Of a stretch of DNA of 64,000 bases, positions 7,520-51,329 are shown one piece after another (position 1 is the first letter of the stretch; each line of letters starts with the position of its first letter). Origin of the DNA: Bacilli bacterium (GTDB lineage Bacteria; Bacillota_I; Bacilli_A; RF39; UBA660); assembly GCA_022791775.1 (NCBI GenBank), contig JAAVZT010000003.1, positions 103,107 through 167,106 of the forward strand, read 5' to 3'. The notes beneath the pieces are model-generated. The model ran no database searches and was not told where the DNA came from. It saw only the letters and a program-made list of their open reading frames with translations. The position numbers and the translations under genes are program-made.

Positions 7520-8794
7520 ATGTTTGTTGATCTTGTAAAAATGAAATTAATTGCAGGAAGTGGTGGAAATGGCTGTACTGCTTTTCGAAGAGAAAAATAT
7601 GTTCCCATGGGTGGACCTGATGGTGGAAATGGTGGCAAAGGTGGCGACATTATTTTTAAAGTAGAAAAGGGTTTAAAAACATTAGTTGATCTAAAATACC
7701 ATAAGATTTTAAAAGCAAAAAAAGGAGAAAATGGTAAAGGAAGCAGTATGCACGGGAAAAAGGCAGAAGACATCATCGTGAAAGTGCCAGCTGGAACAAC
7801 TATTTTTGATGATGATTCTAGTTTAATATTAGCAGATTTATTAGAAGATCAAGAGGAATTCGTTGTAGCTAAAGGCGGTCGCGGAGGAAGAGGAAATAAA
7901 GCATTTGCAACTCAAAATGAACCGGCACCGAAATTTAGTGAATTGGGAGAGCCAGGAGAAATTCGTTATATTCGGTGTGAATTAAAAGTGTTAGCAGATG
8001 TTGGCTTAATTGGTATGCCAAGTGTGGGAAAAAGTACAATTTTAAGTCAAGTGAGTAATGCAAATCCCAAAATAGCTTCCTATCATTTTACAACGTTATC
8101 TCCAAATCTAGGACTAGTAAAATTAAAAGATGAACGATCTTTTGTCATTGCCGATCTTCCAGGATTAATTGAAGGTGCCCATGAAGGCGTAGGTCTTGGA
8201 ATTCAATTTTTGAAACACGCCATGCGAACCCGAATTTTAGCTCACGTAATTGATATGGCTGGAACTGAAGGAAGAAAGCCCTGGGAAGACTACACCTTAA
8301 TTCGCAAAGAAATGGAAAAATATCAAAAAGAATTAGCAGAAAAAAAAGAAATTGTAGTTGCGAATAAAATGGATGGAGAAAATTTTAAAGAAAATTTAAA
8401 GCTATTTAAAGAAAAATATCCGAATGTAAAAGTATTTGAAATCAGTGCTTTGAATAATCAAGGATTAGAAGAATTAATGAATTATTTTGCTGATTTATTA
8501 AAGACCATAGAAAAACAAGATATTTATGACGAAAAAGATTATGAAAGTACAGTAATTTATAAATTTCAAAATGAAAAGCCATATACAATTACGAAAGATC
8601 AAGATATTTGGATTTTAAAAGGCAAAGAAATTGAAAAGCTATTTTTGATGACTCGTTGGGAAGAAGAAGACGCTCAGCTTCGCTTTGCTAGAAAATTAAA
8701 AGGAATGAAAGTAGAAGAAGAATTAGAACGACTAGGAGCGAGAAGAGGAGATGAAGTAAAAATATTAGATTATATCTTCGTCTTCAAAGAATAA
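7520..8794 (+). CDS. obg: GTPase Obg (ObgE/CgtA)
   Basis: MFVDLVKMKLIAGSGGNGCTAFRREKYVPMGGPDGGNGGKGGDIIF is the Gly-rich Obg fold signature. G1-G4 motifs are present (GMPSVGKST, DLPG, NKMD). C-terminal OCT domain present. Confidence 0.92.
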   Translation: MFVDLVKMKLIAGSGGNGCTAFRREKYVPMGGPDGGNGGKGGDIIFKVEKGLKTLVDLKYHKILKAKKGENGKGSSMHGKKAEDIIVKVPAGTTIFDDDSSLILADLLEDQEEFVVAKGGRGGRGNKAFATQNEPAPKFSELGEPGEIRYIRCELKVLADVGLIGMPSVGKSTILSQVSNANPKIASYHFTTLSPNLGLVKLKDERSFVIADLPGLIEGAHEGVGLGIQFLKHAMRTRILAHVIDMAGTEGRKPWEDYTLIRKEMEKYQKELAEKKEIVVANKMDGENFKENLKLFKEKYPNVKVFEISALNNQGLEELMNYFADLLKTIEKQDIYDEKDYESTVIYKFQNEKPYTITKDQDIWILKGKEIEKLFLMTRWEEEDAQLRFARKLKGMKVEEELERLGARRGDEVKILDYIFVFKE

Positions 8795-9106
8795 ATGCTC
8801 ATTTAATTGAATCGACAAACTAGTATTTTGAGGCAATTCTAATATACTAGTTTTTTTAATGGGAAAATTTAATTTTAAAATTTGATTTTTCGGAAGATTG
8901 CGGTAAATATAAATCACTTTATTTTCTAAGTTTAAACCAATTACATCAATTGGTTCTTTCATAAAAAAAGTATGAATGGCATTACAATTTGGAAAAAGCA
9001 TTCCGTAATGAAAATTAGACTGGCCCATTAAACCCCAAAAACGTTCTGAAATAGAAAGGGCTTTTTTTATCAATATTCTTTGATTTTCTAAATTAAGATA
9101 CATCAT
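8765..9106 (-). CDS. DUF192-family protein (COG1430)
   Basis: 113 aa containing RFWGLMGQ...GMLFPN...IHTFFMKEPIDVIGLN...ILELP, a match to the DUF192 pattern. It converges on obg and overlaps its 3' end by 30 nt. Confidence 0.55.
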   Translation of the reverse strand: MMYLNLENQRILIKKALSISERFWGLMGQSNFHYGMLFPNCNAIHTFFMKEPIDVIGLNLENKVIYIYRNLPKNQILKLNFPIKKTSILELPQNTSLSIQLNEHLFFEDEDII

Positions 9107-9236
9107 ATCACCTTAACAAATTATATCAAAAATAAAGCTATTTATACGAAAAAATAAAAAAAATCAAAATAAAGATAGCAATCTAAAAATGATTATGCTA
9201 TACTTTTAATAGACTAGAAAATAAAGGGTGTATGTT

Positions 9237-10634
9237 ATGAGAAAAAAGTATAAAATTGCCTTATTAATCATTGGACTAATGATTATTGCGACTTTCTATA
9301 CCGGAGTGACTTATGCTTTATGGGTTAGAACATTTGAAGGAAATGAAACAAATGTGATAAAAGCAGGATGTTTTACAATTGGGTTTCAGGAAATGTCAAA
9401 ATCAATTAGCTTAAAAAATACCTATCCAATCAAAGATTCTGAAGCGTTACAAAAATCCAAGCCATATAAAGTTAAAATTTCAAATACATGTGATACCACG
9501 GATGCTGGATATGCAATTACTCTAAATACCTTAAACGTAAATGGTACCAAAATTGATGATGAAAAAATAAAAGTGGCTATTGGCGTGAACAATCAAACAC
9601 CTTCTGCTGGAAATATTTTAAAAAATATGGAAATTAATCAAGAAACAGCAAATCTAGAATTAGATGGAACATTATTGACGTCATATATTATTAATACAGG
9701 ATATATTGAAAAGTCAACTTCCAAAACTTTTGATTTATATTTATGGATTGACAGCAGTGCAGGAAATGAAGTAATGAATCAACAATTTGAAGCGAGCATT
9801 GTGGTGACGAGCTATGCAACCAAAATGAATACCTTAGAAACAGCCATTCAAACGGAAAATTCAGCGCGCAATGCTGGAAATGGAATTATAGAAGTAAGTC
9901 ATTCAAACTCAGAGTTAGCGAACAATAATTATAAAAATACAGAATATCGCTATGTTGGAGCAAATCCAAATAATTATATTATGTTTCAAAATGAAACTTG
10001 GAGAATTATAGGTCTTGTAAATACAATGGAGGGCCCTCGAATCAAAATTATTCGGGATCAACCACTTCGAGACGCTACAATCTTGTTAAATGAAGCAAAA
10101 AATAATTGGACCGAATCTAGTTTACAAGAATATTACACGAATACATATTTAAATACCTTAAATGAAGAAAGTAGAAATGTAATTGATACTGTAACATGGA
10201 ATTTGGGAAGTGCGATCGGTACTCTAAATACATTATCTTGGTATGAAGAAGAAAAGAAAGAAAATACCTTTGGAGCAAATCCAAATATATGGTCTGGAAA
10301 AATAGGCTTAATTTCTCCAAGCGACTATGGGTATGCTACAAGTGGTGGCGCTACAATCGATCGAAACATATGTTTAAATACAGAACTTTCTAAATTAAGT
10401 GAAAAATCAGAATGTATTGCCAATAATTGGCTATTTATTGCCAATAAATCACAGTGGTTCTTAACCGCTTCGCTCCAAAATGGAGAAAAATATTGGACCA
10501 TAAATGAGGCAGGAGACTTAGAAGAACAAAATGCTAACAGTGCCTATGCAGATCGTCCAACCCTTTATTTAAAAGCAGGGTTAACCGTTAAAAGTGGAAA
10601 TGGAACACCTGGAAACCCTTATATAATATTTTAA
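9237..10634 (+). CDS. Large secreted protein with a SipW-cognate-like N-terminus, directly upstream of the Tad locus
   Basis: ~466 aa. An ATG at 9237 follows the RBS AAAGGGTG; the ORF track starts at a GTG at 9228. The N-terminus is KKYK + hydrophobic + TGVTYALWVRTFEGNE. The rest is Asn/Thr-rich and looks beta-rich. The W-V-R-x-F-E-x-N stretch resembles the N-termini of the proteins at 48864 and 49492. Confidence 0.5.
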   Translation: MRKKYKIALLIIGLMIIATFYTGVTYALWVRTFEGNETNVIKAGCFTIGFQEMSKSISLKNTYPIKDSEALQKSKPYKVKISNTCDTTDAGYAITLNTLNVNGTKIDDEKIKVAIGVNNQTPSAGNILKNMEINQETANLELDGTLLTSYIINTGYIEKSTSKTFDLYLWIDSSAGNEVMNQQFEASIVVTSYATKMNTLETAIQTENSARNAGNGIIEVSHSNSELANNNYKNTEYRYVGANPNNYIMFQNETWRIIGLVNTMEGPRIKIIRDQPLRDATILLNEAKNNWTESSLQEYYTNTYLNTLNEESRNVIDTVTWNLGSAIGTLNTLSWYEEEKKENTFGANPNIWSGKIGLISPSDYGYATSGGATIDRNICLNTELSKLSEKSECIANNWLFIANKSQWFLTASLQNGEKYWTINEAGDLEEQNANSAYADRPTLYLKAGLTVKSGNGTPGNPYIIF

Positions 10635-10639
10635 GTAGA

Positions 10640-10661
10640 AAGCAAGTTATCTTGCTTTTTT
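10640..10661 (+). terminator. Rho-independent terminator (AAGCAAG-TTAT-CTTGCTT + T6)
   Basis: A 7-bp perfect stem followed by a T-run, immediately after the stop at 10634. Confidence 0.6.
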
Positions 10662-10663
10662 GA

Positions 10664-10692
10664 TTGCCATGAAAATCAATCTTTGTTATAAT
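10664..10692 (+). promoter_or_regulatory. SigmaA-type promoter for flp (TTGCCA-17-TATAAT)
   Basis: TTGCCA at 10664-10669, a 17-nt spacer, then TATAAT at 10687-10692. The RBS AGAGGTG lies at 10704-10710. Confidence 0.5.
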
Positions 10693-10716
10693 AAATACAT
10701 AATAGAGGTGGTTTAT

Positions 10717-10935
10717 GTGTTGAATCAAAAAGGCCAAGCATTAGTAGAATATGTGTTAATTGTTGCAATCATTAGTGTGATAACCATTAGTATAGTAAGT
10801 TACTTTGGGGGTTACTTAAAAGATTCAATTACCAAAACATCCTGCAGTTTAGTAGATCAAGAATATGAAGAAGGCGAAAAACCAGGAGAAGGAAAATGTG
10901 TAGATAAAAAAGAAAAATCAGATTTATGGAAATAG
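10717..10935 (+). CDS. flp: Flp/Fap-family pilin (Tad pilus major subunit)
   Basis: Start GTG 10717 or TTG 10720, 7-10 nt after the RBS AGAGGTG; the ATG at 10660 in the ORF track adds an implausible N-terminal extension. NQKGQALVEYVLIVAIISVITI is the Flp prepilin motif G/xxxxEY followed by a hydrophobic helix. ~72 aa. Confidence 0.7.
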   Translation: MLNQKGQALVEYVLIVAIISVITISIVSYFGGYLKDSITKTSCSLVDQEYEEGEKPGEGKCVDKKEKSDLWK

Positions 10936-10951
10936 TGTAGAGGGTGACAAT

Positions 10952-11305
10952 GTGAAAGAAAAAAAAGGGCAAGCACTAGTAGAATTTGTAATCATTCTTC
11001 CTATTTTTATTTTTATGTTATTAGCAATCATTGATGTTGGTAAAATGATCTATGTAAAAAATAGATTAGAAAGTGAAATGGATACAGTTGTCGAGTTATT
11101 TCATGGAAAAAAAACTTTTGATGAAATAAATAAGGAAGTACAACAAAATAGTTCAAAAACAAAACTTGAAATCAAAAATGAAAATAATAAATTTGTTACA
11201 TTTTATTTGAAAGAAGAAATACCCATTATTACGCCATTTCTTAATTTAATATTTAGGCCGCCCTATGAAGTAAAAGCGGAAAGGTCAATTTATTATGAAT
11301 CATAA
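10952..11305 (+). CDS. tadE: TadE-like pseudopilin
   Basis: Begins with GTG. KKGQALVEFVIILPIFIFMLLAIIDVGKMIYV is a TadE-like N-terminal domain (Gxxx-VEF + TM). 117 aa. Confidence 0.6.
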   Translation: MKEKKGQALVEFVIILPIFIFMLLAIIDVGKMIYVKNRLESEMDTVVELFHGKKTFDEINKEVQQNSSKTKLEIKNENNKFVTFYLKEEIPIITPFLNLIFRPPYEVKAERSIYYES

Positions 11306-11675
11306 AGGTCAAACATTAATTATCTTTGTCATTATGATTCCAATTTTAATCATTCTAGCAGCTTTAATCATCGACATTGGAATGATGACGAATATCAAAT
11401 TAAAAGCTTCAGGCACAACGAGAATCATATTAAATGAATTATATGAAAATCGTACACAGTCAAATATAGAATTGCAAGTAAAAGAGCTCTATCAAAAAAA
11501 TAATATTGAAATCTCCAAAATAAAAATAATTGGTCAAGAAGATTATTTTCAAATCGAACTTGAAACAATGGGACCTAGTATTTTTGGCAAGATAATTGGA
11601 ATACATGATTATAAAATATTTTTGAAAAAGACTGCCCGAATGAAAGAAAATCGATTAGAAATTTCAAAAGAATAG
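11295..11675 (+). CDS. TadE/TadF/TadG-like pseudopilin
   Basis: NHKGQTLIIFVIMIPILIILAALIIDIGMM is a TadE-like N-terminus. 126 aa. It overlaps the previous gene by 11 nt. Confidence 0.5.
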   Translation: MNHKGQTLIIFVIMIPILIILAALIIDIGMMTNIKLKASGTTRIILNELYENRTQSNIELQVKELYQKNNIEISKIKIIGQEDYFQIELETMGPSIFGKIIGIHDYKIFLKKTARMKENRLEISKE

Positions 11676-11686
11676 GAAGTGTATAT

Positions 11687-12466
11687 ATGATACGAAAAAA
11701 AGGAAAATCACTTTGTATTTTTTCTGCAAAAGGGGGAGTAGGAAAAACGATTACAACTCTAAATTTAGCAGGAATATTTAAACTAATTGAAAAAAAAGTA
11801 TTGATTATGGATATGGACTTAGCAAATGGGGGAGTTACAGTGGCCTTAAATTGTCCTTTTACCAGTACTATTTATAACTTTGTAGATGATTACAATAATA
11901 ATCGTTACAAAGAATTTAAAAACTATGTCACGAAATACGATGAATTTATTGATATTTTACCAAGTCCTAAAGATCCTCGTCAAGAAAGCAAAATTGATTC
12001 CAAATATATTGAAATTGCCTTAGATAAAGCACTATATAATTATGATATTGTATTAATTGATACAACTCATGATTTAAACGAACAAAATCTAGTTACCATG
12101 GATATCGTAGATGAAATTTTATTTGTTATGACCAATGATCCTTTGGATTTAAAAAATATGAAATCGTTACTAAGTATCTTTCGAGATTTAGAAAAAACAA
12201 ATTATAAAATCTTATTAAATAATAGTCGAGACCCATACAAAAAATATTTTTCAATCTTTGATATTCGCAGTATTATCAAAGCGAATATTGATTATACCTT
12301 ATCAAGTGAATTTTTTTTAAAGAATATTGATCAATATATCATGAATGGTAAAATCATTACATTAGAACCAAAAATGCCAAATGTATTTGCTAAAGATTAC
12401 TCTGTGCTGATGACGATTGCTGCTGATATCACGAAAGAAGAGGAAGAAAAAAATGAAAAGAAATAG
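11687..12466 (+). CDS. tadZ: TadZ/CpaE-like ParA/MinD-family ATPase (no receiver domain)
   Basis: Deviant Walker A (SAKGGVGKTITTLNLA). 259 aa. It sits between the pseudopilins and cpaF. Confidence 0.65.
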   Translation: MIRKKGKSLCIFSAKGGVGKTITTLNLAGIFKLIEKKVLIMDMDLANGGVTVALNCPFTSTIYNFVDDYNNNRYKEFKNYVTKYDEFIDILPSPKDPRQESKIDSKYIEIALDKALYNYDIVLIDTTHDLNEQNLVTMDIVDEILFVMTNDPLDLKNMKSLLSIFRDLEKTNYKILLNNSRDPYKKYFSIFDIRSIIKANIDYTLSSEFFLKNIDQYIMNGKIITLEPKMPNVFAKDYSVLMTIAADITKEEEEKNEKK

Positions 12467-13790
12467 TCTATTAGATGCATTCAATATTGAGCGAAAAGAA
12501 AAAGTTGTTTCTAATGTAACCGATTATGAGATATTTCCGGATAAAAAATTATTAGATGAGCTTCGAACAAGAATTGTGGAAAATCTAATTGATAAAGAAA
12601 TTCCAGAAGATAAACTATTGAATCAATTTATTAATGATGAAATAGATGAAACGATTGAAGGTTTTGATTTATCAAATTTAGAACGAAGTCATTTATACAA
12701 TTTAATTGATAATGAAATTAACGGCTACGGACCTTTAACCGAATTATTAGAAGATAAAAATATTACTGAAATTATGGTAAACAGTCCGAAAGAAATTTAC
12801 ATTGAAATTGATGGCCAAATTATAAAAGATGATAGCGTTTCTTTTATTAATGACGAACATATCATTAGAACAATTCAAAGACTAATTAATCCTTTAGGTC
12901 GAACTATAGATGCAACAAATCCAATGGTCGATTCAAGACTTCTAGATGGGTCCCGTATAAATGCCGTCATTCCACCATTATCAACAAAAGGTCCTGTAAT
13001 TACAATTCGAAAATTTAAAGAAGAAATGACTAGTGCTGATGATTTAATTCGAATTGGTTCAATGACACCCTATATGGCAACCTTTTTAGATGCAGCCGTA
13101 AGAGGAAAATGTAACATTATTATATGTGGTGGAACTGGTTCTGGAAAAACGACATTATTAAATATTATGAGTGGTTTTATTTCCCAAGATGAACGAATTA
13201 TTACGATTGAAGATGCAGCGGAATTGAAACTAAACCAACGTCATGTCATTTCCTTAGAAACTCGTATTACAAACTATGAACAAGAAGGAGAAATAACCAT
13301 TCGGGATTTAGTGATTAATTCTCTTAGAATGCGTCCTGATCGAATTATTGTTGGAGAAGTAAGAGGAAAAGAAGCTTTCGACATGTTACAAGCCATGAAT
13401 ACGGGACATGATGGTTCCATGACAACTTTGCATGCGAATGGACCGAAAGATGCCTTAAACCGTTTGGAAACTATGGTACTAATGAGTGGTTTAGATATTC
13501 CGATTCGAGCAATTCGAGAATATATTATTAATGCAATAGATTTAATTGTGAATATAGATCGAATGAGTGATGGAAGACGAAAAATAACTTCCATTGCAGA
13601 GCTAGAAGGAATGGAAGAAGATGAAATTCGTCTTCGAGAAATATTTGCTTTTCGGCAAAATGGATTAACATCAAAAAAAGAAGTAGATGGAGAATATATT
13701 CTTTATGAAGACAAAGTTCCCGACATCTATGAAAAGATTGCTTCAAAAGGAATAACAGAAATAGACGAAATGTTTCATATAAAAAAATAA
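12453..13790 (+). CDS. tadA: CpaF/TadA secretion ATPase (VirB11/TrbB family)
   Basis: Walker [13 protein letters not shown], Walker B IIVGEVRG, His box [19 protein letters not shown] 12453 follows the RBS GAGGAAGAA; the ORF track starts upstream at 12417. Confidence 0.85.
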
Positions 13791-13811
13791 GAAGAAAGAG
13801 GGTAAAAAAAA

Positions 13812-14819
13812 ATGGAGGGATTTATATGGCAAGTATTTGTTATTCAAGTATTTACAATTCTTGCTTTATTTGCCACAATTTTATTCTTACTTCGCGAATC
13901 TAAGTCCATTAAATATCAAAAAAGATTTGAACGCTTTGCATTACTTTCCGTAAAAGACTATGAAAAATCTTTCTTTGACATCTTATTAACCAAAACTTGG
14001 ATCATAATTCATAAAATAAGTAAATCATTCAGTAAAAGTGTTTTTCTAAAAAAATACAGTGAAAAATATGAAAAACACATTACGTTTGAAGAAAAAGATT
14101 TTAAATCGGGTATGGATTATGTCACAATCAAGTTTCTTACAGCATTTTGTTTCGTCATTTTTAACATGTTAACAATAATGTTTCAATATGCCAAAATCGG
14201 CTTTATTAGTTCTATTTTAGCCTTTTTCATTGGCTTTTTTGTCCCAGATCTCATTTTAAATATTCAATTCAAACAAAAAAGAAAACGAGTTGAAGATGAT
14301 TTACTAAAAGCCATTATTATTATGAATAATAGTTTTAAATCTGGTCGAAATATTATGCAAGCAGTTGAAATCGTAAAAAACGAACTAAATGGTCCCATTA
14401 GCGATGAATTTAAAAAAATATATATGGATATGACTTATGGACTAAGTTTAGATGTTGTATTTAATCGATTTTATGAACGGGTCAAGTTAGAAGATGCAAA
14501 ATATATTACATCATCACTAACTCTGTTAAACCGAACTGGTGGTAATATAGTAAGAGTATTCTCAACGATTGAAAAATCATTTTTTGATAAAAAGAAATTA
14601 TTAAACGAAATGAAAAGTTTAACAGCAGCTAGTATTTTTGTCTTTCGTGTCTTAATTGCTCTTCCATTTTTGTTTTCATTTCTAATTTTTTTAATGAATC
14701 CGAATTATTTTAATCCCTTTTTTGAAACCCCAGTTGGAATCATCTTATTTATATTAACGATTATCTTATATATATGTTACGTATTAACAATTAAAAAAGT
14801 ATTGAAGGTGAAAATGTAA
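13812..14819 (+). CDS. tadB: TadB-like inner-membrane protein (T2SS-F domain)
   Basis: 335 aa and polytopic, with a cytoplasmic T2SSF-like helical domain (LLKAIIIMNNSFKSGRNIMQAVEIV...). Follows tadA. Confidence 0.65.
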   Translation: MEGFIWQVFVIQVFTILALFATILFLLRESKSIKYQKRFERFALLSVKDYEKSFFDILLTKTWIIIHKISKSFSKSVFLKKYSEKYEKHITFEEKDFKSGMDYVTIKFLTAFCFVIFNMLTIMFQYAKIGFISSILAFFIGFFVPDLILNIQFKQKRKRVEDDLLKAIIIMNNSFKSGRNIMQAVEIVKNELNGPISDEFKKIYMDMTYGLSLDVVFNRFYERVKLEDAKYITSSLTLLNRTGGNIVRVFSTIEKSFFDKKKLLNEMKSLTAASIFVFRVLIALPFLFSFLIFLMNPNYFNPFFETPVGIILFILTIILYICYVLTIKKVLKVKM

Positions 14820-15523
14820 TGAAAAAAGAAAAGAGTTTAGTCCGACGGATATATTTAGAAAAAACCATTCAAAAAGTTGAACAAAAAATAGATTTACTAG
14901 GTATATATTGCCATTATAATGCAATCGATTTATTAAATTATCGGTTATTAATTTCGATCGCTATTTTCTCTATTTGTTTAATTGTTTTAAAAGAAGGATA
15001 TATTGTTGGACCTTTACTAACTTTAATATTTTATGTAGGAAGTGAATATCTTTTACTGGATATTCCAATTAAAAAAAGAGAAAAAAAACTAGAAGAAGAA
15101 GCTGTTTTTTTCTTTGAAGTATTATCATTGACATTAGAAAGTGGTCGTAATTTGAATGCTGCTCTTGATATCACTGCCGCCAATATTGATAATGAATTAT
15201 CAGCAGAATTTAAAAAGGCCCTAGCAGAAATCCATTTAGGAAAAAGTTTTACTGAAAGTATTACAGATATGAAAAAAAGAATTCCTAGTGATACAATAAA
15301 TAATGCATTATTAAATATTACTCAATCCAGCATTTTTGGAAATAGTATTTTAGAATCTTTAAATAATCAATTAGACTTTTTAAGAGAGAAAAGAATTTTA
15401 GAAGTAAAATCCGAGATTGCAAAACTGCCAACTAAAATCAGCGCCATTTCAGTTGTATTCTTTATTCCGATCATGCTTTTAGTTATTTTAACACCAGTTG
15501 TTTTAGAATTTTTATTTGGATAA
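14819..15523 (+). CDS. tadC: TadC-like inner-membrane protein (T2SS-F domain)
   Basis: 234 aa with T2SSF-like FFFEVLSLTLESGRNLNAALDITAAN and a C-terminal TM. ATGA overlap with tadB. Confidence 0.6.
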   Translation: MKKEKSLVRRIYLEKTIQKVEQKIDLLGIYCHYNAIDLLNYRLLISIAIFSICLIVLKEGYIVGPLLTLIFYVGSEYLLLDIPIKKREKKLEEEAVFFFEVLSLTLESGRNLNAALDITAANIDNELSAEFKKALAEIHLGKSFTESITDMKKRIPSDTINNALLNITQSSIFGNSILESLNNQLDFLREKRILEVKSEIAKLPTKISAISVVFFIPIMLLVILTPVVLEFLFG

Positions 15524-15556
15524 CTGATTAAAAAGGAAATGTAATAATTTAAATTT

Positions 15557-15642
15557 GCGAGAATGGCGGAATAGGTAGACGCGCTACTTTGAGGGGGTAG
15601 TGAATTATTTTTGTGAGAGTTCAAATCTCTTTTCTCGCACCA
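15557..15642 (+). tRNA. tRNA-Leu (anticodon GAG), type II with a long variable arm, CCA encoded
   Basis: The acceptor stem GCGAGAA pairs with TTCTCGC. The anticodon stem CTACT/GGTAG carries the loop TTGAGGG, giving anticodon GAG. The T-arm is GAGAGTTCAAATCTCTT, followed by discriminator A and CCA. Confidence 0.85.
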
Positions 15643-15689
15643 GAGAAGAATCTGCTCGAACTTTTATAGTTTTGAGCTTAATGATAAAT

Positions 15690-15719
15690 ATCAATTCTAG
15701 AAATGGAATTGATTTTTTG
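15690..15719 (+). terminator. Rho-independent terminator after the tRNA (ATCAATTC-N8-GAATTGAT + T6)
   Basis: A perfect 8-bp stem with a T-run at 15714-15719. Confidence 0.6.
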
Positions 15720-15748
15720 TTTTGTAAGAAAGTGAGGAGATTCTTAAA

Positions 15749-16024
15749 ATGGTAACAATAAAGAATGAAAAAATCGAAATGGAAGAAGCATTTAAAAATA
15801 AGATAGAATTTATTTGTAGTTTTTGTGGAACTACTCCTACTATTTATAATGGAAGTATAAAGATGATAGAACACACGAATTTGCAATATGTAGAACCTCA
15901 TAGAGTTATTATTAAAGGTGTAACTTTTCTAGCATTTAATTATGAAGCTAATATCTATATTGAAAACTTAAGTAATGCTATTCCACTAAAAGATTTAGAA
16001 GAATATATTAAGTCATTAAATTAA
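15749..16024 (+). CDS. Hypothetical small protein (first gene of the tRNA-adjacent island)
   Basis: 91 aa with an RBS (GAGGAGA). Contains a CSFCG Cys pair. No homology recognised. Confidence 0.35.
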   Translation: MVTIKNEKIEMEEAFKNKIEFICSFCGTTPTIYNGSIKMIEHTNLQYVEPHRVIIKGVTFLAFNYEANIYIENLSNAIPLKDLEEYIKSLN

Positions 16025-16093
16025 AATGATATTTATAAAAATCATTCCATTCTAACAATTGTTTAAGTTTTTCTAATGTGTTCAATATATGGT

Positions 16094-16167
16094 ATTGCAT
16101 ACTTTTTGCAACAATTTTGCAACTTTTTTGCAGGAAATTTGCAACAATTTTGCCTAGACATTGCAAG
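16094..16167. repeat. Cluster of TTGCAA-containing direct repeats (TTGCAACAATTTTGC x2 at 16106-16120 and 16139-16153, plus TTGCAT/TTGCAAG copies) upstream of the serine recombinase
   Basis: A directly visible 15-bp exact direct repeat. TTGCAA is itself palindromic. Confidence 0.6.
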
Positions 16168-16201
16168 TAATACTGGTAAAATAATATATGCTAATAAATA
16201 A

Positions 16202-18016
<1,815 letters not shown>

Positions 18017-18240
18017 TATGGGAATGATTGGAGTATCAAAAGATAATGAAACCTGTGTAGAAAATGAAGAAGAATTATTTTCTACAATACCACTCGATAG
18101 CATTTCAGAGAATGAATATATTTTTAGAAAAGAAAATAATTGTTAATACAAATGTATATACAATTTTTCCTTTTAAAATAAAGAACTTATACTGTTAGAA
18201 ACTCCGTTTGTATATACAAAAATTTAATTTTGTATGTACA

Positions 18241-18256
18241 TTTCGCAAGTGCGAAA
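18241..18256. repeat. 16-bp palindrome TTTCGCA-AG-TGCGAAA in the 450-bp intergenic region
   Basis: Visible directly. The 7-bp arms are perfectly inverted. Confidence 0.5.
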
Positions 18257-18463
18257 TAGGTGTTGGTGCACGAAAAATCGTTAGAAAGCCTTTGTTTATA
18301 AGGTTTTCTAGATTTCGTGGTGTTTTCTCATATCCTGTTGTCTTTTTTTCCTTTGTATTTTTACACGATTAGATAGTAAATTGGTTTAAAATATAGTATG
18401 ATCTTCATTAAGGAGTTACCTAAATATATGGATTGATATAATTAAATAAGAGAGGTCTGAAAA

Positions 18464-19381
18464 ATGATTAACATGAATGAAATTAAACAGAAAATAGAAA
18501 AACTCAAAGTTAGTTTGCCGAGTTTGAATATCGATAGTATTTTTTTGGAACAGGATGGAAAACTAGATAAAGTTTTTTATAGTGAAGAATGTTTACATGA
18601 GTTAAGAAGTTGTTCAAAATTATTAGTGGCAATGGCTATTGGAATTGCGATAGATAAAGGAATGATAACACTAGATACTTTTATTTATCCATCCATTAAA
18701 AATATTGTTGAAATTAGAAATGGAAAGAATTTAGAAAAAATTAAAAAATGGAAAATCAGAGATTTATTAACTCATACTACTGGTTATGAAAGTCAAATGA
18801 TGTCTGAAAGATTTATAAAGGATATTGACGAAAGCAAATTACTTGATTATGCACTTAATTTTGATATACCTTATAATGTTGGAACAAGATTTGCTTACAA
18901 TAATGTAGAACCATTTATATTATCAGTGTTTTTTCAAGAAACTTTCGGAATAAACCTATCTGATTTTATAAACGAAAATATATTTAAAAAATTAGATATT
19001 AAAGAATATAAATGGGATAATTTTGGAAAGTATTGTCCTGCTTCAACAGGACTTTATCTTAAACATAGTGATTTTCATAAAATTGGTAAATTATTATTAA
19101 ACAATGGAAAATACAATGATATTCAAGTAATACCAGAAACTTGGATAAATGAAATGTGTACATTACAGCTAGAAACACCTTCTGCATTTAAACCTGAAAG
19201 AGTGTTTCCAAAGGTTGGGGTTGGTTATTATACCTTTATTTCAACGAATAATTATATTTTTAGAGATGGTGCAGATGGACAATATATTATAATAAATAAA
19301 GAAAAAAATTTATTAATAACTATAATGTCAAAAGAAAAAGAAATGAAAAATGTGACAAAAATTTTAAGAAATTTAATATAG
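18464..19381 (+). CDS. Beta-lactamase-fold serine hydrolase (class C/PBP-like family)
   Basis: SxxK (SCSK), LLTHTTGY and YNN (YxN) motifs. 305 aa with no signal peptide evident. Confidence 0.55.
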   Translation: MINMNEIKQKIEKLKVSLPSLNIDSIFLEQDGKLDKVFYSEECLHELRSCSKLLVAMAIGIAIDKGMITLDTFIYPSIKNIVEIRNGKNLEKIKKWKIRDLLTHTTGYESQMMSERFIKDIDESKLLDYALNFDIPYNVGTRFAYNNVEPFILSVFFQETFGINLSDFINENIFKKLDIKEYKWDNFGKYCPASTGLYLKHSDFHKIGKLLLNNGKYNDIQVIPETWINEMCTLQLETPSAFKPERVFPKVGVGYYTFISTNNYIFRDGADGQYIIINKEKNLLITIMSKEKEMKNVTKILRNLI

Positions 19382-19391
19382 GAGGCAAGAT

Positions 19392-19829
19392 ATGAGTGAT
19401 GAACAATATATTGATATAGCAATAGAAATAAGTAGAAGTGCAAAATATCCCTATGGAGCTATTGTTGTTAAGGATAATAAAATAATTGGTCGAAGCGATG
19501 ATAGAACTTTAATGGAAACAAGTATATTTTCTCATGCTGAATTAGAAGCGATTGAAAGCGCTTCTAAAAATAAAACACTTTATGGAGACCTGAAAGGTGC
19601 AATAATGTATGTATCTTGTGAGCCTTGTATGATGTGTATGGTTGCAATACTTTACGAAGAGTTTAATAAATTGGTGTATGCTGCAACATTACAAGATAGT
19701 AATGATAATTATTGTCCAGAGATGATTACTAACATAAATGAATTGGCAAAATATTCTAAGAACAAAATAGAAATAGTAAAAGAATTACACAGAGATAAGG
19801 CTGTTGAAGTATTAAAGTCACATAATTGA
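19392..19829 (+). CDS. CDA-fold zinc-dependent deaminase (cytidine/deoxycytidylate/TadA-like superfamily)
   Basis: HAELEAI (H-A-E) and CEPCMMC (PCxxC) zinc-binding motifs. 145 aa. Confidence 0.65.
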   Translation: MSDEQYIDIAIEISRSAKYPYGAIVVKDNKIIGRSDDRTLMETSIFSHAELEAIESASKNKTLYGDLKGAIMYVSCEPCMMCMVAILYEEFNKLVYAATLQDSNDNYCPEMITNINELAKYSKNKIEIVKELHRDKAVEVLKSHN

Positions 19830-19838
19830 GGTGTAGTA

Positions 19839-20549
19839 ATGCAGGAAAGTTTGAAAATTAGTAACGATACAAATATGCAATTATCATATATCAGAATTTT
19901 AAATACTCTATATAATCAAGTGAAAAAAGATTGTGAAGATTTAGATTTAATTGGTTTTAAAGGAATAAAAATAGTTAATGATGATTTATTGAATTCTAGT
20001 TCTGACGGAAATTCAAAAGATAAGCTAATATTATTACCTAAAAATAAAACTGAAAGATACATTTGTGATAGGAAGTATGAGGTGGTAAAATCTACAATTT
20101 ATCATGAACTATGTCACATTGATTTAGCAAATAAATTACCACATTTACACTCTTTACACAAAAAATATATCGAATTAGAAGATTACATTAAATGTTTCAC
20201 AATAATGATTTATATAGAATATCTAGCACATTTAAAAAGTACAAAATATGAAAGTACAGAAAATATCGACAAATTTTTCTGCTCTGTTAACGATAGGAAA
20301 TGGGATTTTAATGATGATTGTGATTGTGTATGGTTTATAAAAGTGTCACCTTATGTCATTGCTAGGGCATTAGATAATAGATTTATTGATAAAGATTATG
20401 TTCAATTGATAGCTGATGAAGATGTAAAAAAACATATTTTAGAAATAAAAGAAATACTTTGTAGTCTACCATCAGAAAATTTAAATGATGATATGAGCAT
20501 ATTAGAAAAATTAGAGAATTATGTAAGTAATTATATAAAAAACGATTAA
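19839..20549 (+). CDS. Hypothetical protein with an HExxH-like motif (YHELCH)
   Basis: 236 aa containing STIYHELCHIDL, a possible metallopeptidase-like site. Otherwise unrecognised. Directly upstream of the CHAT protease gene. Confidence 0.4.
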   Translation: MQESLKISNDTNMQLSYIRILNTLYNQVKKDCEDLDLIGFKGIKIVNDDLLNSSSDGNSKDKLILLPKNKTERYICDRKYEVVKSTIYHELCHIDLANKLPHLHSLHKKYIELEDYIKCFTIMIYIEYLAHLKSTKYESTENIDKFFCSVNDRKWDFNDDCDCVWFIKVSPYVIARALDNRFIDKDYVQLIADEDVKKHILEIKEILCSLPSENLNDDMSILEKLENYVSNYIKND

Positions 20550-20578
20550 ATAGCTGTTTATTCAAGGGGATGAAATAA

Positions 20579-21643
20579 ATGTCATTTGTAACAATTTATT
20601 CAAATAATTTAAAAAGAAAAAAAGAAGAATTAAGTAGATTAAAAAAGGATAGAGTTAGATATGTTGATATAGTTAGTGGATGTAGCAAAAAAATAATTAG
20701 TGCTACTAAACAAGCTAATTCTACTAGATCAACTTCTACTTATAAAAGTAAACTAAATGAAATTGAACGTGAAAATAAGAAAAAATCTGACGCAGAAAAA
20801 AGGCTTGCTGATTATGATAAAAAAATTGCAATAAAAGAAAAAGAAGTATTAGTAGAAGAACAAAAACTGCTGAAAGCACAAGAAAATGAAGGCAAAGAGT
20901 TGGAAAGAGAAAGGAAAAGATCAATCGAAGAAATTAATAAAAATATAAATTTTCAAAGAATTGCTTATGAAGAATTAAATAATGAGATAAAAAAAATGAA
21001 AGAATCAAAAGAAAAAATAAATGTTTTATTTATAGCTTCAAATCCTGATATAGAATTGTTTGATAGTAGTGGGAACTCCTATCAGCAACAAAAATTAAAA
21101 TTAGATAAAGAAGCTAGAGAAATTCATGATTCAATTCAAAAATCATTAAAAAGAGATTCAATTAATTTTGAAACAAGGTGGGCAACTAGAATAACAGATT
21201 TATTTCAGTTTATAAATGAAGTTAATCCAACAATTTTGCATTTTAGTGGGCATGGAACAGCAGATGGAAAATTGGTGTTTCAAGATAATAAAGACCAACC
21301 CAAAACAGTAAATGTAGATACATTAGTTGAGATGATTAATGCTTCATCAGATGATATAAGATTAGTGGTACTAAATAATTGTTTTTCTTCTACTATCTCT
21401 GAAAAAATTATTGATAATATTGAAGCTTCAATTGGAATGAATACTTCAATTGGAGATGAAGCGGCAATTGTATTTGCGTCACAATTATATTCAGCCATTG
21501 GGTTTGGACATTCCTTAGAAAAGGCTTTTCAGCAAGCGATAGTGGCATTGAAATTGTATGAAATACCTGAAACTCAGACTCCTCAACTATTTGTAAATGA
21601 TAATTTTGAGGCAAAAGATATATATTTAGTAGCAAAAAAATAG
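20579..21643 (+). CDS. Coiled-coil + CHAT-domain (caspase-like) protease
   Basis: An N-terminal K/E-rich coiled-coil of ~150 aa. The C-terminal domain has the His/Cys dyad context ILHFSGHG ... LVVLNNCFSS, typical of CHAT/caspase folds. Confidence 0.6.
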   Translation: MSFVTIYSNNLKRKKEELSRLKKDRVRYVDIVSGCSKKIISATKQANSTRSTSTYKSKLNEIERENKKKSDAEKRLADYDKKIAIKEKEVLVEEQKLLKAQENEGKELERERKRSIEEINKNINFQRIAYEELNNEIKKMKESKEKINVLFIASNPDIELFDSSGNSYQQQKLKLDKEAREIHDSIQKSLKRDSINFETRWATRITDLFQFINEVNPTILHFSGHGTADGKLVFQDNKDQPKTVNVDTLVEMINASSDDIRLVVLNNCFSSTISEKIIDNIEASIGMNTSIGDEAAIVFASQLYSAIGFGHSLEKAFQQAIVALKLYEIPETQTPQLFVNDNFEAKDIYLVAKK

Positions 21644-21658
21644 TGAAAGGAGTTAATC

Positions 21659-22696
21659 ATGGATAATAACATAATTAAAAATGAAGACTTATTTGGAAAT
21701 TACTATAACAAAATAAATGAATTAATATTAAAGACAAAACATAGTGTTGCTAAAAATATAAATTCAGAAATGGTAGCATTATATTATGAAATAGGTGCTA
21801 CTATTAATGAACTTATAGAAAATTATCATTTAGAAGCCTCTCAAAATGATATTATAAAAATTTTTTCTGAAAAATTAACTAATGAGTTTGGACAAGGATT
21901 TAGTGTTCCAAGTTTGAAAAAAATGAAAAAGTTTTATCAAGTTTTTCAAGGTGGTTCCACACTGTGGAACCAGTTAAGTTGGAGTCATAATCGTTTAATA
22001 ATGAATATAGATGACGAAAACAAAAGAAATTTTTACTTAGAGGAATCTATAAAATCAAATTGGAGTGTTAGACAATTAGAAAGACAAATTAATAGTTTTT
22101 ATTATGAAAGATTACTATCTACTAGTGATAGTACTAAAAATGAAGTAAAAAATGAGATTAATACTTTGGAAAAGAAAGAAAAGGTAATAGATTTTATAAA
22201 AGATCCATATGTTCTAGAATTTTTAGATATTAAAGATCGAAGATTTTTAGAGAAGGATTTAGAATCTAATTTGCTTGAGCACATATCAGAATTTTTATTA
22301 GAATTAGGTAGAGGATTTTCATTTGTAGCAAGGCAAAGGAGAATAGATGTTGACGGGGATAATTTTTATATAGATTTGGTTTTTTATAATTATGTATTAA
22401 AATGCTTTGTTTTAATAGATTTAAAATTGGACAAATTGACTCATCAAGACATTGGTCAAATGGATTTTTATGTTAGGTATTTTGATAATGAAATTAAAGA
22501 TGAACATGACAATCCAACCATTGGAATAATATTATGCTCTGATAAGAAAGATACAATTGTTAAGTACTCTGTATTAAATGATAATAAAAATTTATTTGCC
22601 TCTAAATATCAACTATATTTGCCAACAGAAAAAGAATTAGCACTAGAGATTGAAAAACAAAAAGCAGAATATAATACTTTTTTGGATAATAAGTAA
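21659..22696 (+). CDS. DUF1016/YhcG-family PD-(D/E)xK nuclease
   Basis: The N-terminus (SVAKNINSEMVALYYEIGATINE) is typical of YhcG. C-terminal FYIDLVFYN...LIDLKLDK matches a PD-(D/E)xK core. 345 aa. Confidence 0.6.
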   Translation: MDNNIIKNEDLFGNYYNKINELILKTKHSVAKNINSEMVALYYEIGATINELIENYHLEASQNDIIKIFSEKLTNEFGQGFSVPSLKKMKKFYQVFQGGSTLWNQLSWSHNRLIMNIDDENKRNFYLEESIKSNWSVRQLERQINSFYYERLLSTSDSTKNEVKNEINTLEKKEKVIDFIKDPYVLEFLDIKDRRFLEKDLESNLLEHISEFLLELGRGFSFVARQRRIDVDGDNFYIDLVFYNYVLKCFVLIDLKLDKLTHQDIGQMDFYVRYFDNEIKDEHDNPTIGIILCSDKKDTIVKYSVLNDNKNLFASKYQLYLPTEKELALEIEKQKAEYNTFLDNK

Positions 22697-48863: not shown

Positions 48864-49439
48864 ATGGAGAAGAAAAGACAAAATAAAATTCTTGCGATTG
48901 TAGCCATTTGTATTGCTTTATTGGGTATGGGATTCTCCTATGCAAGTATGAGTACTAAGCTAGACATTAAAGGTTTCGCTACCATAAGCAGTGCTAATTG
49001 GGATGTTCATTTTGAAAATCTATCCCATGCCACTTTAATTGGCCAGGCAATTGAAAAAAAACATCCTACCATCACAGATAATTCAACATCGATTAGTACC
49101 TATGATGTGATGTTTCAAGCCGCAAAAGATGGAATTAGTTATGATATCGAAATTGTCAATGGTGGAGGAATCGATGCCAAAATCACATCTTTAAACATAT
49201 CAAAACCAATTTGCAAAGGCAGTGGAATTTCATCAAGTAACGATGAACAGTTAGTTTGCAATAATTTGCAATATACGATCAAATACTTAGATGGTACTCC
49301 GTTAAAAATTGGCGATATTTTAAAAAAAGGTACAACTACTTATGCTAGATTAAAGCTGGTTTATGAGGGGAGTGATTTACCTTTCGAAGAAGTAAGAATT
49401 AACGATTTAGGAATCACCATTCTATATTCCCAAAATTAA
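48864..49439 (+). CDS. Small secreted protein A with a SipW-cognate-like signal peptide (putative fibre/pilin-like subunit)
   Basis: ~191 aa from ATG 48864. N-terminus is KKRQNK + hydrophobic + GMGFSYASMST, then SANWDVHFENLS. C-terminus is ...DLGITILYSQN. Paralog of the next gene. Confidence 0.55.
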   Translation: MEKKRQNKILAIVAICIALLGMGFSYASMSTKLDIKGFATISSANWDVHFENLSHATLIGQAIEKKHPTITDNSTSISTYDVMFQAAKDGISYDIEIVNGGGIDAKITSLNISKPICKGSGISSSNDEQLVCNNLQYTIKYLDGTPLKIGDILKKGTTTYARLKLVYEGSDLPFEEVRINDLGITILYSQN

Positions 49440-49491
49440 AAGTGGGAAAAGAAGTGATTAATAAATAGATTAAAAAATAGGAGGAAATTGT

Positions 49492-50079
49492 ATGGAAAAA
49501 GAAAGAAAAACAAAATTTTTAGCTATTTTAGCTATCTGTATTGCGGTGGTTGGATTAACGGTTGGATTTGCAGCTTTTAGCTCAGCTTTAACAATTAATG
49601 GGACAAGTACCATAAAATCATCTAGTTGGCAAGTAAGATTTGAAAACTTATCTGCTGTAACAAAAACGGGGACAGCAACAGAGGTAAGCGCTCCAACTGT
49701 TAATACAAATGATACCAATATTGGAGATTATGACGTTACACTAACAACCCCAGGAGATTCAATCAGTTATACATTTGATGTTGCAAATAATGGTACATTT
49801 GATGCTGAAGTGACCACTATTACAATTCCAACGCCAACTTGCACAGGGAACGGTGCCAATGCAGAAATCGATGCCAAAAACGTATGTGATAACTTAAATT
49901 ATACCTTGACTTATGAAGATGGAACCGCAATTACTGCTACTGACGCTATTTTAGCAGGTCAAAGAAAAAGATTAAAATTAACACTTACTTATAGTAATAC
50001 GGTTACTGCTGAAAAGTTAGCTAGTGATGATGTGGCTATTAGCAATTTAGGAATTACAATTCTTTACTCTCAAAAGTAA
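49492..50079 (+). CDS. Small secreted protein B with a SipW-cognate-like signal peptide (paralog of A)
   Basis: 195 aa. N-terminus is KERKTK + hydrophobic + VGFAAFSSALT, then SSSWQVRFENLS. C-terminus is ...SNLGITILYSQK. Thr/Ala-rich. Confidence 0.55.
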   Translation: MEKERKTKFLAILAICIAVVGLTVGFAAFSSALTINGTSTIKSSSWQVRFENLSAVTKTGTATEVSAPTVNTNDTNIGDYDVTLTTPGDSISYTFDVANNGTFDAEVTTITIPTPTCTGNGANAEIDAKNVCDNLNYTLTYEDGTAITATDAILAGQRKRLKLTLTYSNTVTAEKLASDDVAISNLGITILYSQK

Positions 50080-50192: not shown

Positions 50193-51329
50193 ATGAAAAA
50201 AAGTACGATCAAATTATTAATCATTGAATTTTTTTTAATATTTCTTTTACTATTAAATATTTTTTTAATAAATATAAAGAATCTTTATCTTTTATCAGGA
50301 ATGCTATTTTTTTTCTCACTTGTGACTGTTTGTCTATTAGGATATGAAAAAAATAGGCAGCGGTTTAAAAAAGACATTATTTTAAATATTGTGATATCTA
50401 CAGTTACTTTTCAGATTGTTCTATATTTATCTGGAATTTATCTAGGCTTCTTTAAAAATGGTTATAGTTTAACCTTATTCAACATATTAAAAAATATAAT
50501 TCCAATCTTTTTAATAATTCTCGTTTCAGAATTTTTAAGATACTGTATCAATGTGAAGGGTCAAAAAGAGAAAATAGTTATAGTCCTTTCTGTTCTTATT
50601 TTCGTTTTAATCGATGTCTCTTTACAAATTCATTTATATCAATTACAAAATAAAAAGGATGTATTTGAGCTTTTCTCTTATCTAGTTTTACCTAGTATCT
50701 CTAAAAATATATTACTCACTTATTTATCCATAAAGTTTGGTTACGAATCTAGTATTTTATATCGAAATATTATGGAACTGACCATCTACTTTATGCCAAT
50801 TTTACCAGATATTAATATTTATCTGAATGCAGTTTTAAATTTTATTTTCCCGCTTTTCTTATTTTACATTAACTATCAAAACTTTAATCCAAAAGAAAAC
50901 CAAAAAGATATAAGAAAAAAGAATTTTGGTTATCAAATAACAGGTGGTATTGTTACTTGTATATTTGTTATAATTGTTGCTTTAATCAGCGGGATTTTTC
51001 CAATATATGCTTTGGTGATCGGCTCAGAATCAATGATGCCCGAAATCAACAAGGGAGATATCGTTATCATTAAAAAATTAAACGGAAAACAGTTAATGGA
51101 TTTAGAAGAAAGAGATATCTTAGCCTTTCAGTATAATAAGAAAGTAGTAGTTCATCGAATTATTGAAATCCATGAAGTGAATGGAAATTATACCTTTAAA
51201 ACAAAAGGAGATAATAATAATACAGAAGATGAAGGGATTATTGACGAAAAAAAAGTAATAGGAAAAGTCATTTCGAGAGTACCTTATTTAGGGTATCCAA
51301 CAGTATGGCTCAACGAAGCAATGAATTAG
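50193..51329 (+). CDS. SipW-type (S26B, ER/archaeal-type) signal peptidase I fused to a ~250-aa N-terminal polytopic membrane domain
   Basis: The C-terminal ~120 aa (GSESMMPEINKGDIVIIKK ... VVVHRIIEI ... KGDNN) match the SipW Ser/His-type catalytic core (SGSMEP...GD...HR). About 7 TM helices precede it. Canonical SipW is ~190 aa. Confidence 0.65.
   Translation: MKKSTIKLLIIEFFLIFLLLLNIFLINIKNLYLLSGMLFFFSLVTVCLLGYEKNRQRFKKDIILNIVISTVTFQIVLYLSGIYLGFFKNGYSLTLFNILKNIIPIFLIILVSEFLRYCINVKGQKEKIVIVLSVLIFVLIDVSLQIHLYQLQNKKDVFELFSYLVLPSISKNILLTYLSIKFGYESSILYRNIMELTIYFMPILPDINIYLNAVLNFIFPLFLFYINYQNFNPKENQKDIRKKNFGYQITGGIVTCIFVIIVALISGIFPIYALVIGSESMMPEINKGDIVIIKKLNGKQLMDLEERDILAFQYNKKVVVHRIIEIHEVNGNYTFKTKGDNNNTEDEGIIDEKKVIGKVISRVPYLGYPTVWLNEAMN

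Follow-up and report, generated by a model that had tools for sequence, protein, structure and literature searches.

On the plus strand at positions 9237 to 10634 of the window, by which we mean the whole 64,000-nucleotide stretch of Bacilli bacterium DNA analyzed here, lies a gene that we call the target. It is well supported that the target encodes an exported protein composed of a TasA-like N-terminal domain and a DUF6273 lectin-like head, and likewise that it belongs to a large, dispersed, multi-copy, and uncharacterized family of uncultured gut Bacilli. We lean toward the view that its product is a Sec-exported, two-domain binding protein, either surface-displayed or secreted, whose signal peptide is, in our proposal, processed by a signal peptidase of the SipW or endoplasmic reticulum (ER) type. 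An earlier interpretation of this DNA made from its letters (hereafter the sequence-only reading) had described a 466-residue protein with a SipW-cognate-like N-terminus. The open reading frame (ORF) is present and begins with the residues quoted there (MRKKYKIALLIIGLMIIATFYTGVTYALWVRTFEGNE), but it encodes 465 amino acids plus a stop codon. A Shine–Dalgarno-like sequence, AAAGGGTG, precedes the ATG at 9237. The parts of the target are listed below, where an arrow marks a predicted cleavage site and pLDDT is the predicted local distance difference test score.

9237 to 10634, plus strand: target ORF, 465 amino acids plus stop codon
9237 to 9317, plus strand: predicted signal peptide, residues 1–27, with a KKYK n-region, a hydrophobic region (h-region) of 18–19 amino acids, and the predicted site T-Y-A↓L-W
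9318 to 9359, plus strand: conserved segment LWVRTFEGNETNVI, residues 28–41, disordered in both models (pLDDT below 50)
9348 to 9821, plus strand: beta-sandwich domain, TasA/camelysin-like, residues 38–195, with C45 and C85 invariant in a 44-sequence alignment
9879 to 10631, plus strand: DUF6273-type, C-type-lectin-like domain, residues ~215–465, with C379 and C393 invariant

An AlphaFold model built from the 44-sequence alignment (pLDDT 85) consists of a helix at residues 2–20, a disordered stretch at 20–37, a beta-sandwich at 38–195, and a second globular domain at ~215–465. TasA is the top structural match, and the N-terminal domain has the jelly-roll/beta-sandwich core characteristic of TasA. 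The C-terminal domain has the C-type-lectin-like fold of known DUF6273 domains. It matches a protease whose residues 31–322 are annotated as DUF6273 (PMC12402451), and DUF6273 has been described as C-type-lectin-like in phage receptor-binding proteins targeted by diversity-generating retroelements (DGRs) (PMC10743442).

The target scores 21.8 bits against DUF6273 (PF19789) over residues 286–446 (E value 1.9e-4; threshold 23.5 bits), and this model is matched by 5 of 46 divergent family members at E ≤ 0.01 (best 1.4e-7). Peptidase_M73 (PF12389, threshold 22.5 bits) does not match the target itself; camelysin/M73 gives sub-threshold matches at E ≤ 0.01 in 3 of the 46 members (best 1.5e-4), and the family member in one of the fetched loci, which are designated here by L numbers, reaches 20.6 bits (L036, E = 4.4e-4). 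Besides DUF6273, camelysin/Peptidase_M73 is the only Pfam family matched by more than one family member. A profile search of the family against sequences in the PDB returned a single result, a kinase match (E = 0.19) that we rejected as spurious.

Homologues of the target form more than 2,100 clusters at 90% identity (2,136 were counted as a minimum), and nearly all are full-length and unannotated. Their record titles name uncultured gut “Bacilli,” “Tenericutes,” “Mycoplasma sp. CAG:956,” and “Candidatus Ventrenecus.” Single metagenome-assembled genomes (MAGs) hold at least six to eight copies, which bears out the earlier suggestion that a family of this kind is dispersed through the genome. 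We also sought stand-alone N-domains of the target type (~200 amino acids), which might serve as major subunits, and found among the loci only the split or truncated genes of L050 and L073. In other loci, the target-type N-domain is joined to different and longer C-termini that do not match the DUF6273 part of the family, as in the tandem genes for proteins of ~660–670 amino acids in L029, L030, and L038 and at 14242–16284 of L010. These N-domains carry S-Y-A-x-W and the Cys pair, and the tandem arrays sometimes comprise three or four genes.

The processing of the target is best discussed alongside a SipW-like cassette at 48.8–53.8 kb in the window, which includes the following genes.

48864 to 50079, plus strand: two paralogous small secreted proteins of 191 and 195 amino acids with a G-F/Y-A↓A/S-F N-terminus; candidate fiber subunits
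50193 to 51329, plus strand: SipW/ER-type signal peptidase I, 378 amino acids, whose N-terminal membrane domain is long and polytopic (at least seven hydropathy segments)
51339 to 52457, plus strand: DUF5305 protein with two transmembrane segments (57 bits)
52447 to 53829, plus strand: 460-amino-acid protein with a cassette-type N-terminus and a glycine-rich ALK_LTK_GRD domain (127 bits); candidate “head-bearing” subunit

Profile comparisons show that the class resemblance between the target N-terminus and those of SipW-cassette proteins is real, with most of it lying in three places: the signal peptide, the residues around the cleavage site, and the first strand. When 44 target homologues (residues 1–200) were compared with about 120 homologues of the small proteins by using hhalign, residues 1–56 of one family aligned without gaps to residues 1–56 of the other (probability 88%, E = 2.8e-6). 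A MAFFT alignment of the target and three cassette N-termini gave the identical register, with pairwise identities among the four of 10–21%. In this shared register, T-Y-A-L-W of the target, which contains Y26-A27-L28-W29, lies over S-Y-A-S-M, G-F-A-A-F, and G-F-S-A-L, and C45-F46-T-I-G-F50-Q-E52-M lies over W-D-V-H-F-E-N-L and W46-Q-V-R-F50-E-N52-L.

The resemblance is also specific. A hidden Markov model (HMM) of the first 100 residues of the family was run against the 5,580 ORFs of at least 60 amino acids found in the window and in 2.3 Mb of fetched loci, among which are numerous other membrane proteins and proteins with signal peptides. Outside the family, the best matches are SipW-cassette proteins from four genomes (E values 8e-7 to 4e-4), and the first and second small proteins of the window match with E values of 3.7e-5 and 4.3e-4, respectively. 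Only one other non-family ORF falls below 0.01, a 178-amino-acid ORF in L076 with a similar N-terminus, A-T-S-Y-A-Y-Y.

The sequence-only reading had based its argument on a different feature, namely that a W-V-R-x-FE-x-N stretch in the target echoes WDVHFENL and WQVRFENL, which are carried by the small ORFs at 48864–49439 and 49492–50079, respectively. This echo is not homologous. A register of W29...N36 with W46...L53 is ruled out by both alignments, which set the motif 17 residues from its counterpart. At least 90% of the 44 aligned family sequences conserve L28 and W29, whereas F33 and E34 are not conserved. Because the two alignments give another register and F33 and E34 are unconserved, the likeness of WVRTFEGN to the small-protein motifs can be attributed to chance. 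Thus, the alignment of the four N-termini that had been put forward as a check does yield a shared register, but one in which the quoted motif has no place. Moreover, the outcome that was to count against the proposal, a likeness no better than chance, is true of the F-E match but not of the wider N-terminal class.

Residues flanking the predicted site further suggest how the protein may be processed. The following compares 127 distinct N-termini of the target family with 89 of the small-protein family.

Position −3: S in 113 and T in 13 (target family); G, A, or V (small-protein family)
Position −2: Y in 118 and F in 8 (target family); F or Y (small-protein family)
Position −1: A in 105 and S in 21 (target family); A in 87 (small-protein family)
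Position +1: mostly L (target family); mostly A (small-protein family)
Position +2: W in 101 and F in 20 (target family); F, L, or Y (small-protein family)

From this pattern we infer a cut after (S/T)-Y-A27 that would expose L-W-V..., with an aromatic residue at mature position 2. Divergent family members read GTSYAYF... or GVSYAAF... at this point, followed by N-x-I-T-T-G-S-I-x-M in the style of camelysin and TasA. The donor strand of TasA comprises residues 28–38 and starts directly at the SipW cut (PMC9674648), and by analogy residues 28–41 of the target might be regarded as a candidate donor strand. A similar Ala-then-W-F cleavage style is seen in another secreted protein of the window, encoded at 314–976, which reads ...SQETICA↓WFQKD after its h-region. 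That protein receives no score from the N-terminal HMM of the family.

The cassette that supplies this comparison has the makings of a fiber locus. Its peptidase scores 85 bits against TIGR02228 (archaeal/ER-type signal peptidase I) and 67 bits against the SipW model NF046067, whose cut-off is 190, and at least seven membrane segments precede its candidate catalytic residues S278, H321, and GDN339. The gene order small–small–peptidase–DUF5305 is kept in other genomes (L168–L173 and L177), and contig CBCPBS010000001.1 of NCBI assembly GCA_965115265.1 carries an identical cassette. TasA-superfamily fiber loci of the AbpX/Tafi type have been described that encode a dedicated signal peptidase I with about ten transmembrane helices, DUF5305, minor subunits, and predicted tips, and a role as an accessory signal peptidase I subunit has been put forward for DUF5305 (bioRxiv 10.64898/2026.01.04.697558; PMC11821415). 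In gene content, the window cassette matches these loci: besides the polytopic signal peptidase I and DUF5305, it encodes two small candidate subunits and a larger accessory protein that bears a candidate head. The ALK/LTK glycine-rich domain is an unusual candidate head for a fiber cassette, and the head-bearing protein varies among genomes, being 553 or 814 amino acids long or carrying DUF6273.

Two of these variants bear on the design of the target. L169 encodes, immediately before its two small subunits, a 725-amino-acid protein that begins in the cassette style (SIGYSALSTTLKINGVASV...) and matches DUF6273 with 115 bits. In L172, a 789-amino-acid protein has an N-terminus like that of the glycine-rich protein of the window, and its match to the C-terminal HMM of the target family has an E value of 9e-29. 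These proteins indicate that the combination of a fiber-type N-module with a DUF6273 head is used inside SipW cassettes. The target repeats this design on a sister N-module.

Several findings weigh against the processing and the fiber relationship considered here. Much of the N-terminal similarity stems from the signal peptide: When residues 1–21 are left out, hhalign from residue 22 onward gives an E value of 4.5e-3 and a probability of 8%, and an HMM of the mature part (residues 28–200) finds no protein of the small family, so that homology beyond the first ~50 mature residues is not demonstrated by sequence. The length of the target h-region also fits an uncleaved membrane anchor. The signal-peptide model TIGR04088 (cut-off 19 bits) fails to match the target as the full-length protein or as fragments of 60 or 40 amino acids. 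The positive control, B. subtilis TasA, which NCBIfam recognized as such, scored 40.1 bits. Sub-threshold matches to TIGR04088 occur in 8 of 97 family N-termini (best E 0.0035), and the L036 family member reaches 15.1 bits. All three SipW-adjacent proteins of the window fail as well, and therefore this model does not discriminate in the clade, to which it is evidently blind.

Gene locations weigh in the same direction. The target lies 39 kb from the peptidase gene of the window, and none of 83 family-centered loci has a SipW homologue within 10 kb. The search was sensitive enough, given that its query also picked up a short SipW in L174 (3.5e-17). There, a family gene lies 2.7 kb from this short SipW (169 amino acids), which is of a different kind, and two transposase genes lie between them. 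The L174 region (14312–21560) is a second kind of SipW cluster, in which two short S26-type peptidases (169 and 163 amino acids) are interleaved with four small secreted proteins. It also encodes a protein of more than 1,200 amino acids, and the genes that separate it from the family gene are both of the Transposase_mut type. A family member (P0032) and a SipW homologue (P0247) that were suspected of sharing a 55.69-kb contig proved to lie on different ones. Because SipW-type peptidases of more than one kind occur in these bacteria, the responsible enzyme cannot be assigned. The earlier proposal that the target is a SipW-peptidase substrate is thus strengthened by the class of its N-terminus, but it loses its original motif, receives no TIGR04088 match, and has no SipW gene nearby in family loci. 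Overall, we regard cleavage at A27↓L28 by a SipW/ER-type signal peptidase as plausible, with the chances for and against about evenly balanced.

The immediate neighbors of the target raise another set of possibilities, and its surroundings are as follows.

8765 to 9106, minus strand: DUF192 gene, a conserved upstream neighbor of the Tad locus in relatives
10637 to 10660, plus strand: intrinsic-terminator-like hairpin and T-run directly 3′ of the target stop codon
10664 to 10692, plus strand: sigma-70-type promoter for flp, TTGCCA-17-TATAAT, with extended TG (11/12 positions)
10723 to 15523, plus strand: Tad pilus operon with flp, two tadE-like genes, a tadZ-like ATPase gene, tadA (T2SSE), and tadB/tadC (T2SSF)

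Only 88 bp separate the target stop codon from the flp start in the window. The hairpin has a 10-bp stem and a 4-nucleotide loop (−10.3 kcal/mol, z = −3.2 versus shuffles), and it is absent from the list given by a consensus terminator scan. The promoter is the top match within the 7.6 kb scanned (8700–16300). A terminator after the target and the flp promoter were both named in the sequence-only reading, and both hold up. Hence, on the basis of these signals, the target is very probably transcribed apart from the Tad operon, with its own terminator, while flp has its own promoter. The earlier view of the target as a neighbor of the Tad locus rather than part of the operon agrees with this separate transcription, but to call it a mere neighbor may be too dismissive, given that three subfamilies are found adjacent to Tad.

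Orthologues with 51–62% identity (L001–L003, L006, and L007) occur in the order Obg, DUF192 (minus strand), target orthologue, an optional glycosyltransferase, and flp. The glycosyltransferase gene, of family 2, lies at 11494–12432 of L001 and 11695–12636 of L006, is represented by two ORFs in L002, and is missing from the window. A more distant member in L068 (~30% identical) also sits in this slot, at a distance of 100 bp from flp, and the L036 member (~32% identical) overlaps the end of tadC. The Tad-adjacent copies represent at least three subfamilies that are 30–39% identical to one another, and 4 such loci were observed among 78 when, by a rough estimate, ~0.1 would be expected by chance. 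A scan of metagenome contigs centered on Tad found the slot empty in the close relatives L089 and L093, where flp directly follows DUF192. In other Tad loci of the clade, the operon is preceded by unrelated large secreted proteins, and in L101 by a 738-amino-acid protein that matches the target-family profile. The opposite-strand DUF192 gene precedes Tad in the window, L001, L006, L068, L089, and L093, with or without a gene before flp. We also noted a further TasA-cassette-type N-module adjoining a Tad operon: In L092 (13207–14388), a 393-amino-acid protein with an N-terminus like that of the second small protein (TVAFAALSTTLNINGTAYLDAAKWGIRFENLS) is encoded directly downstream of tadC.

We considered and rejected the target as a component of the Tad machinery itself. 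No Flp/TadE-type prepilin N-terminus (PF04964, PF07811, or PF13400) is present in the target, although three downstream genes match these models, and the slot proved variable or empty in the Tad-centered census. We take the position beside Tad to be a slot in which the surface or adhesin gene varies rather than a fixed place in the operon. The association with Tad is suggestive of co-deployment, which the family does not require.

Other features of the Tad loci deserve brief mention. TadB proteins of ~500 amino acids in L093 (8464–9975), L094 (3062–4573), and L122 (838–2337) have an extra N-terminal region that looks extracellular, whereas the TadB of the window has 335 amino acids. Right after the Tad operon, region 16226–22696 of the window encodes a large serine recombinase (Resolvase, Recombinase, and Zn-ribbon) and then, in this order, a protein with a beta-lactamase fold, one with a CHAT domain, and a YhcG/DUF1016 nuclease. 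The orthologous locus L001 instead has two hypothetical genes and ruvA/ruvB after Tad, and this difference suggests that 16226–22696 may be an inserted mobile element.

It is unlikely, but deserves serious weight, that the target is a lectin-like surface protein of a generic kind, exported or anchored in the membrane, that retains an uncleaved anchor or is cut by a housekeeping peptidase, owes its likeness to cassette proteins to shared TasA-like ancestry, and never enters a fiber. Such a protein might be expected to go unmatched by TIGR04088 and to lie away from SipW genes, as the target and its family do, and family clusters (more than 2,136) greatly outnumber those of the cassettes (163 to 264). 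The strongly basic n-region, the 18–19-residue h-region, and an aromatic Y..W belt would also suit an anchor. Furthermore, other secreted proteins here have ordinary signal peptides of the V-F-A type, which implies that a general signal peptidase is active. However, the near-invariance of small residues at −3 and −1 among 127 divergent N-termini fits a cleavage site better than an anchor, and the segment past the site is conserved although it is modeled as disordered. The specificity with which the N-terminal HMM picks SipW-cassette proteins likewise counts against a generic signal. We consider it very improbable that the resemblance to SipW cognates simply reflects chance between hydrophobic signal peptides and Asn/Thr-rich beta proteins. 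In favor of chance are the low pairwise identities among the four N-termini, the loss of significance when the signal peptide is removed, and the fact that the motif first quoted was indeed a chance match. Yet only the L076 ORF joined the cassette proteins below an E value of 0.01 among 5,580 candidates, TasA is the top structural match, and M73 and TIGR04088 recur as sub-threshold matches within the family.

Another explanation, which we judge to be quite unlikely, is that the target is an adhesin or accessory factor associated with the Tad pilus and functionally coupled to it though separately transcribed. The placement of a family gene between DUF192 and flp in the window and in L001–L003, L006, L007, and L068 would agree with this, as would the overlap with tadC in L036, the excess of Tad-adjacent copies drawn from at least three subfamilies, and the large secreted proteins, including that of L101, that precede other Tad loci. 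However, a terminator and a strong flp promoter separate the target from the operon, close relatives leave the slot empty, and 76 of the 83 family loci lie away from Tad. The target also lacks a prepilin or TadE-like motif, and Tad pili are not known to have a tip adhesin.

The interpretation that we favor, a Sec-exported two-domain binding protein, would operate as follows. A TasA/camelysin-type N-terminal signal peptide would direct export via Sec, and cleavage after (S/T)-Y-A27 would then leave the conserved L-W-V... N-terminus, as occurs in TasA. The enzyme would be an ER/SipW-type signal peptidase I, a role for which the window offers a single candidate, the polytopic protein at 50193–51329 acting together with its partner DUF5305. 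The lectin-like head would probably bind a host, dietary, or microbial ligand. As an optional extension, the freed N-terminal strand could plug into a TasA-like subunit by donor-strand complementation, in which case the target might form the tip of the fiber encoded at 48.8–53.8 kb, nucleate it, or decorate it. Docking of the L-W-V... strand into this fiber or into another TasA-like subunit is speculative and, in our estimation, rather improbable.

Comparison with known systems reveals both parallels and distinctions. TasA of Bacillus (T-W-A↓A-F) and the target (T-Y-A↓L-W) share a small–aromatic–Ala end and an aromatic residue at mature position 2. Like TasA and camelysin, the target continues into the first strand with N-x-hydrophobic-x-x-G-x-hydrophobic-x-hydrophobic, and after the predicted cut it has a conserved segment, modeled as disordered, where TasA has its donor strand. 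In contrast, it remains below the thresholds of both TIGR04088 and PF12389, is not encoded beside a SipW gene, belongs to a multi-copy dispersed family, and carries a 250-amino-acid lectin-like domain that TasA lacks. TapA of B. subtilis offers a parallel to the proposed design, being a SipW-processed accessory with an N-terminus that resembles the TasA donor strand and an additional domain. TapA has been proposed to nucleate TasA fibers by offering the first donor strand (PMC9674648). However, TapA, whose gene is part of the tasA operon, has another kind of extra domain and shares no sequence similarity with the target.

The predicted tip or accessory subunits of AbpX/Tafi systems, like the target, combine a pilin-like N-domain with a distal domain, and cassettes of this type in L169 and L172 hold proteins of the same design with a DUF6273 head. 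The target differs in being 39 kb away from the cassette of the window and in having a distinct N-domain subfamily marked by S-Y-A-L-W and a conserved Cys pair. Among DUF6273 systems are the N-terminal domain of the Thomasclavelia ramosa immunoglobulin A (IgA) protease and the DGR-diversified phage receptor-binding proteins called “tentaclins,” but the target has no M64 peptidase domain and no DGR element was seen. Finally, the target is similar to the Tad pseudopilins TadE, TadF, and TadG in being located directly upstream of flp and in having an N-terminal hydrophobic segment, but it lacks a prepilin site of the G/XXXXE type as well as any TadE or Tad domain, forms a separate transcription unit, and occupies a slot that is empty in close relatives.

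Donor-strand fibers of the TasA superfamily with a dedicated peptidase and DUF5305 have only recently been recognized in bacteria and archaea, and their tips and accessories are still predictions. The target gene ties such a fiber cassette to an unannotated gut family of more than 2,100 clusters and to the DUF6273 domain of a gut IgA protease and of phage receptor-binding proteins. If our proposal were incorrect with regard to processing and fiber loading, the family would still constitute a sizeable group of probable surface lectins that deserve annotation. If it is correct, the N-terminal signature could be of practical use for finding substrates genome-wide. We speculate further, though we think it improbable, that genomes of uncultured gut Bacilli contain 5 to 10 dispersed orphan genes, each supplying a TasA-like adaptor that joins a conserved donor strand (L-W-V...) to a variable lectin-like head, that these proteins, once cut by a SipW-type peptidase, are interchangeable as tips or nucleators on a single TasA/AbpX-like fiber, and that one lineage has repeatedly settled beside Tad as an adhesion island. 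A Gram-positive donor-strand fiber would then have a modular set of swappable adhesins. Were family members indeed cleaved by a SipW-like enzyme and loaded onto fibers, they would provide a variable adhesin repertoire that may shape the attachment of abundant uncultured gut bacteria to host or dietary ligands.

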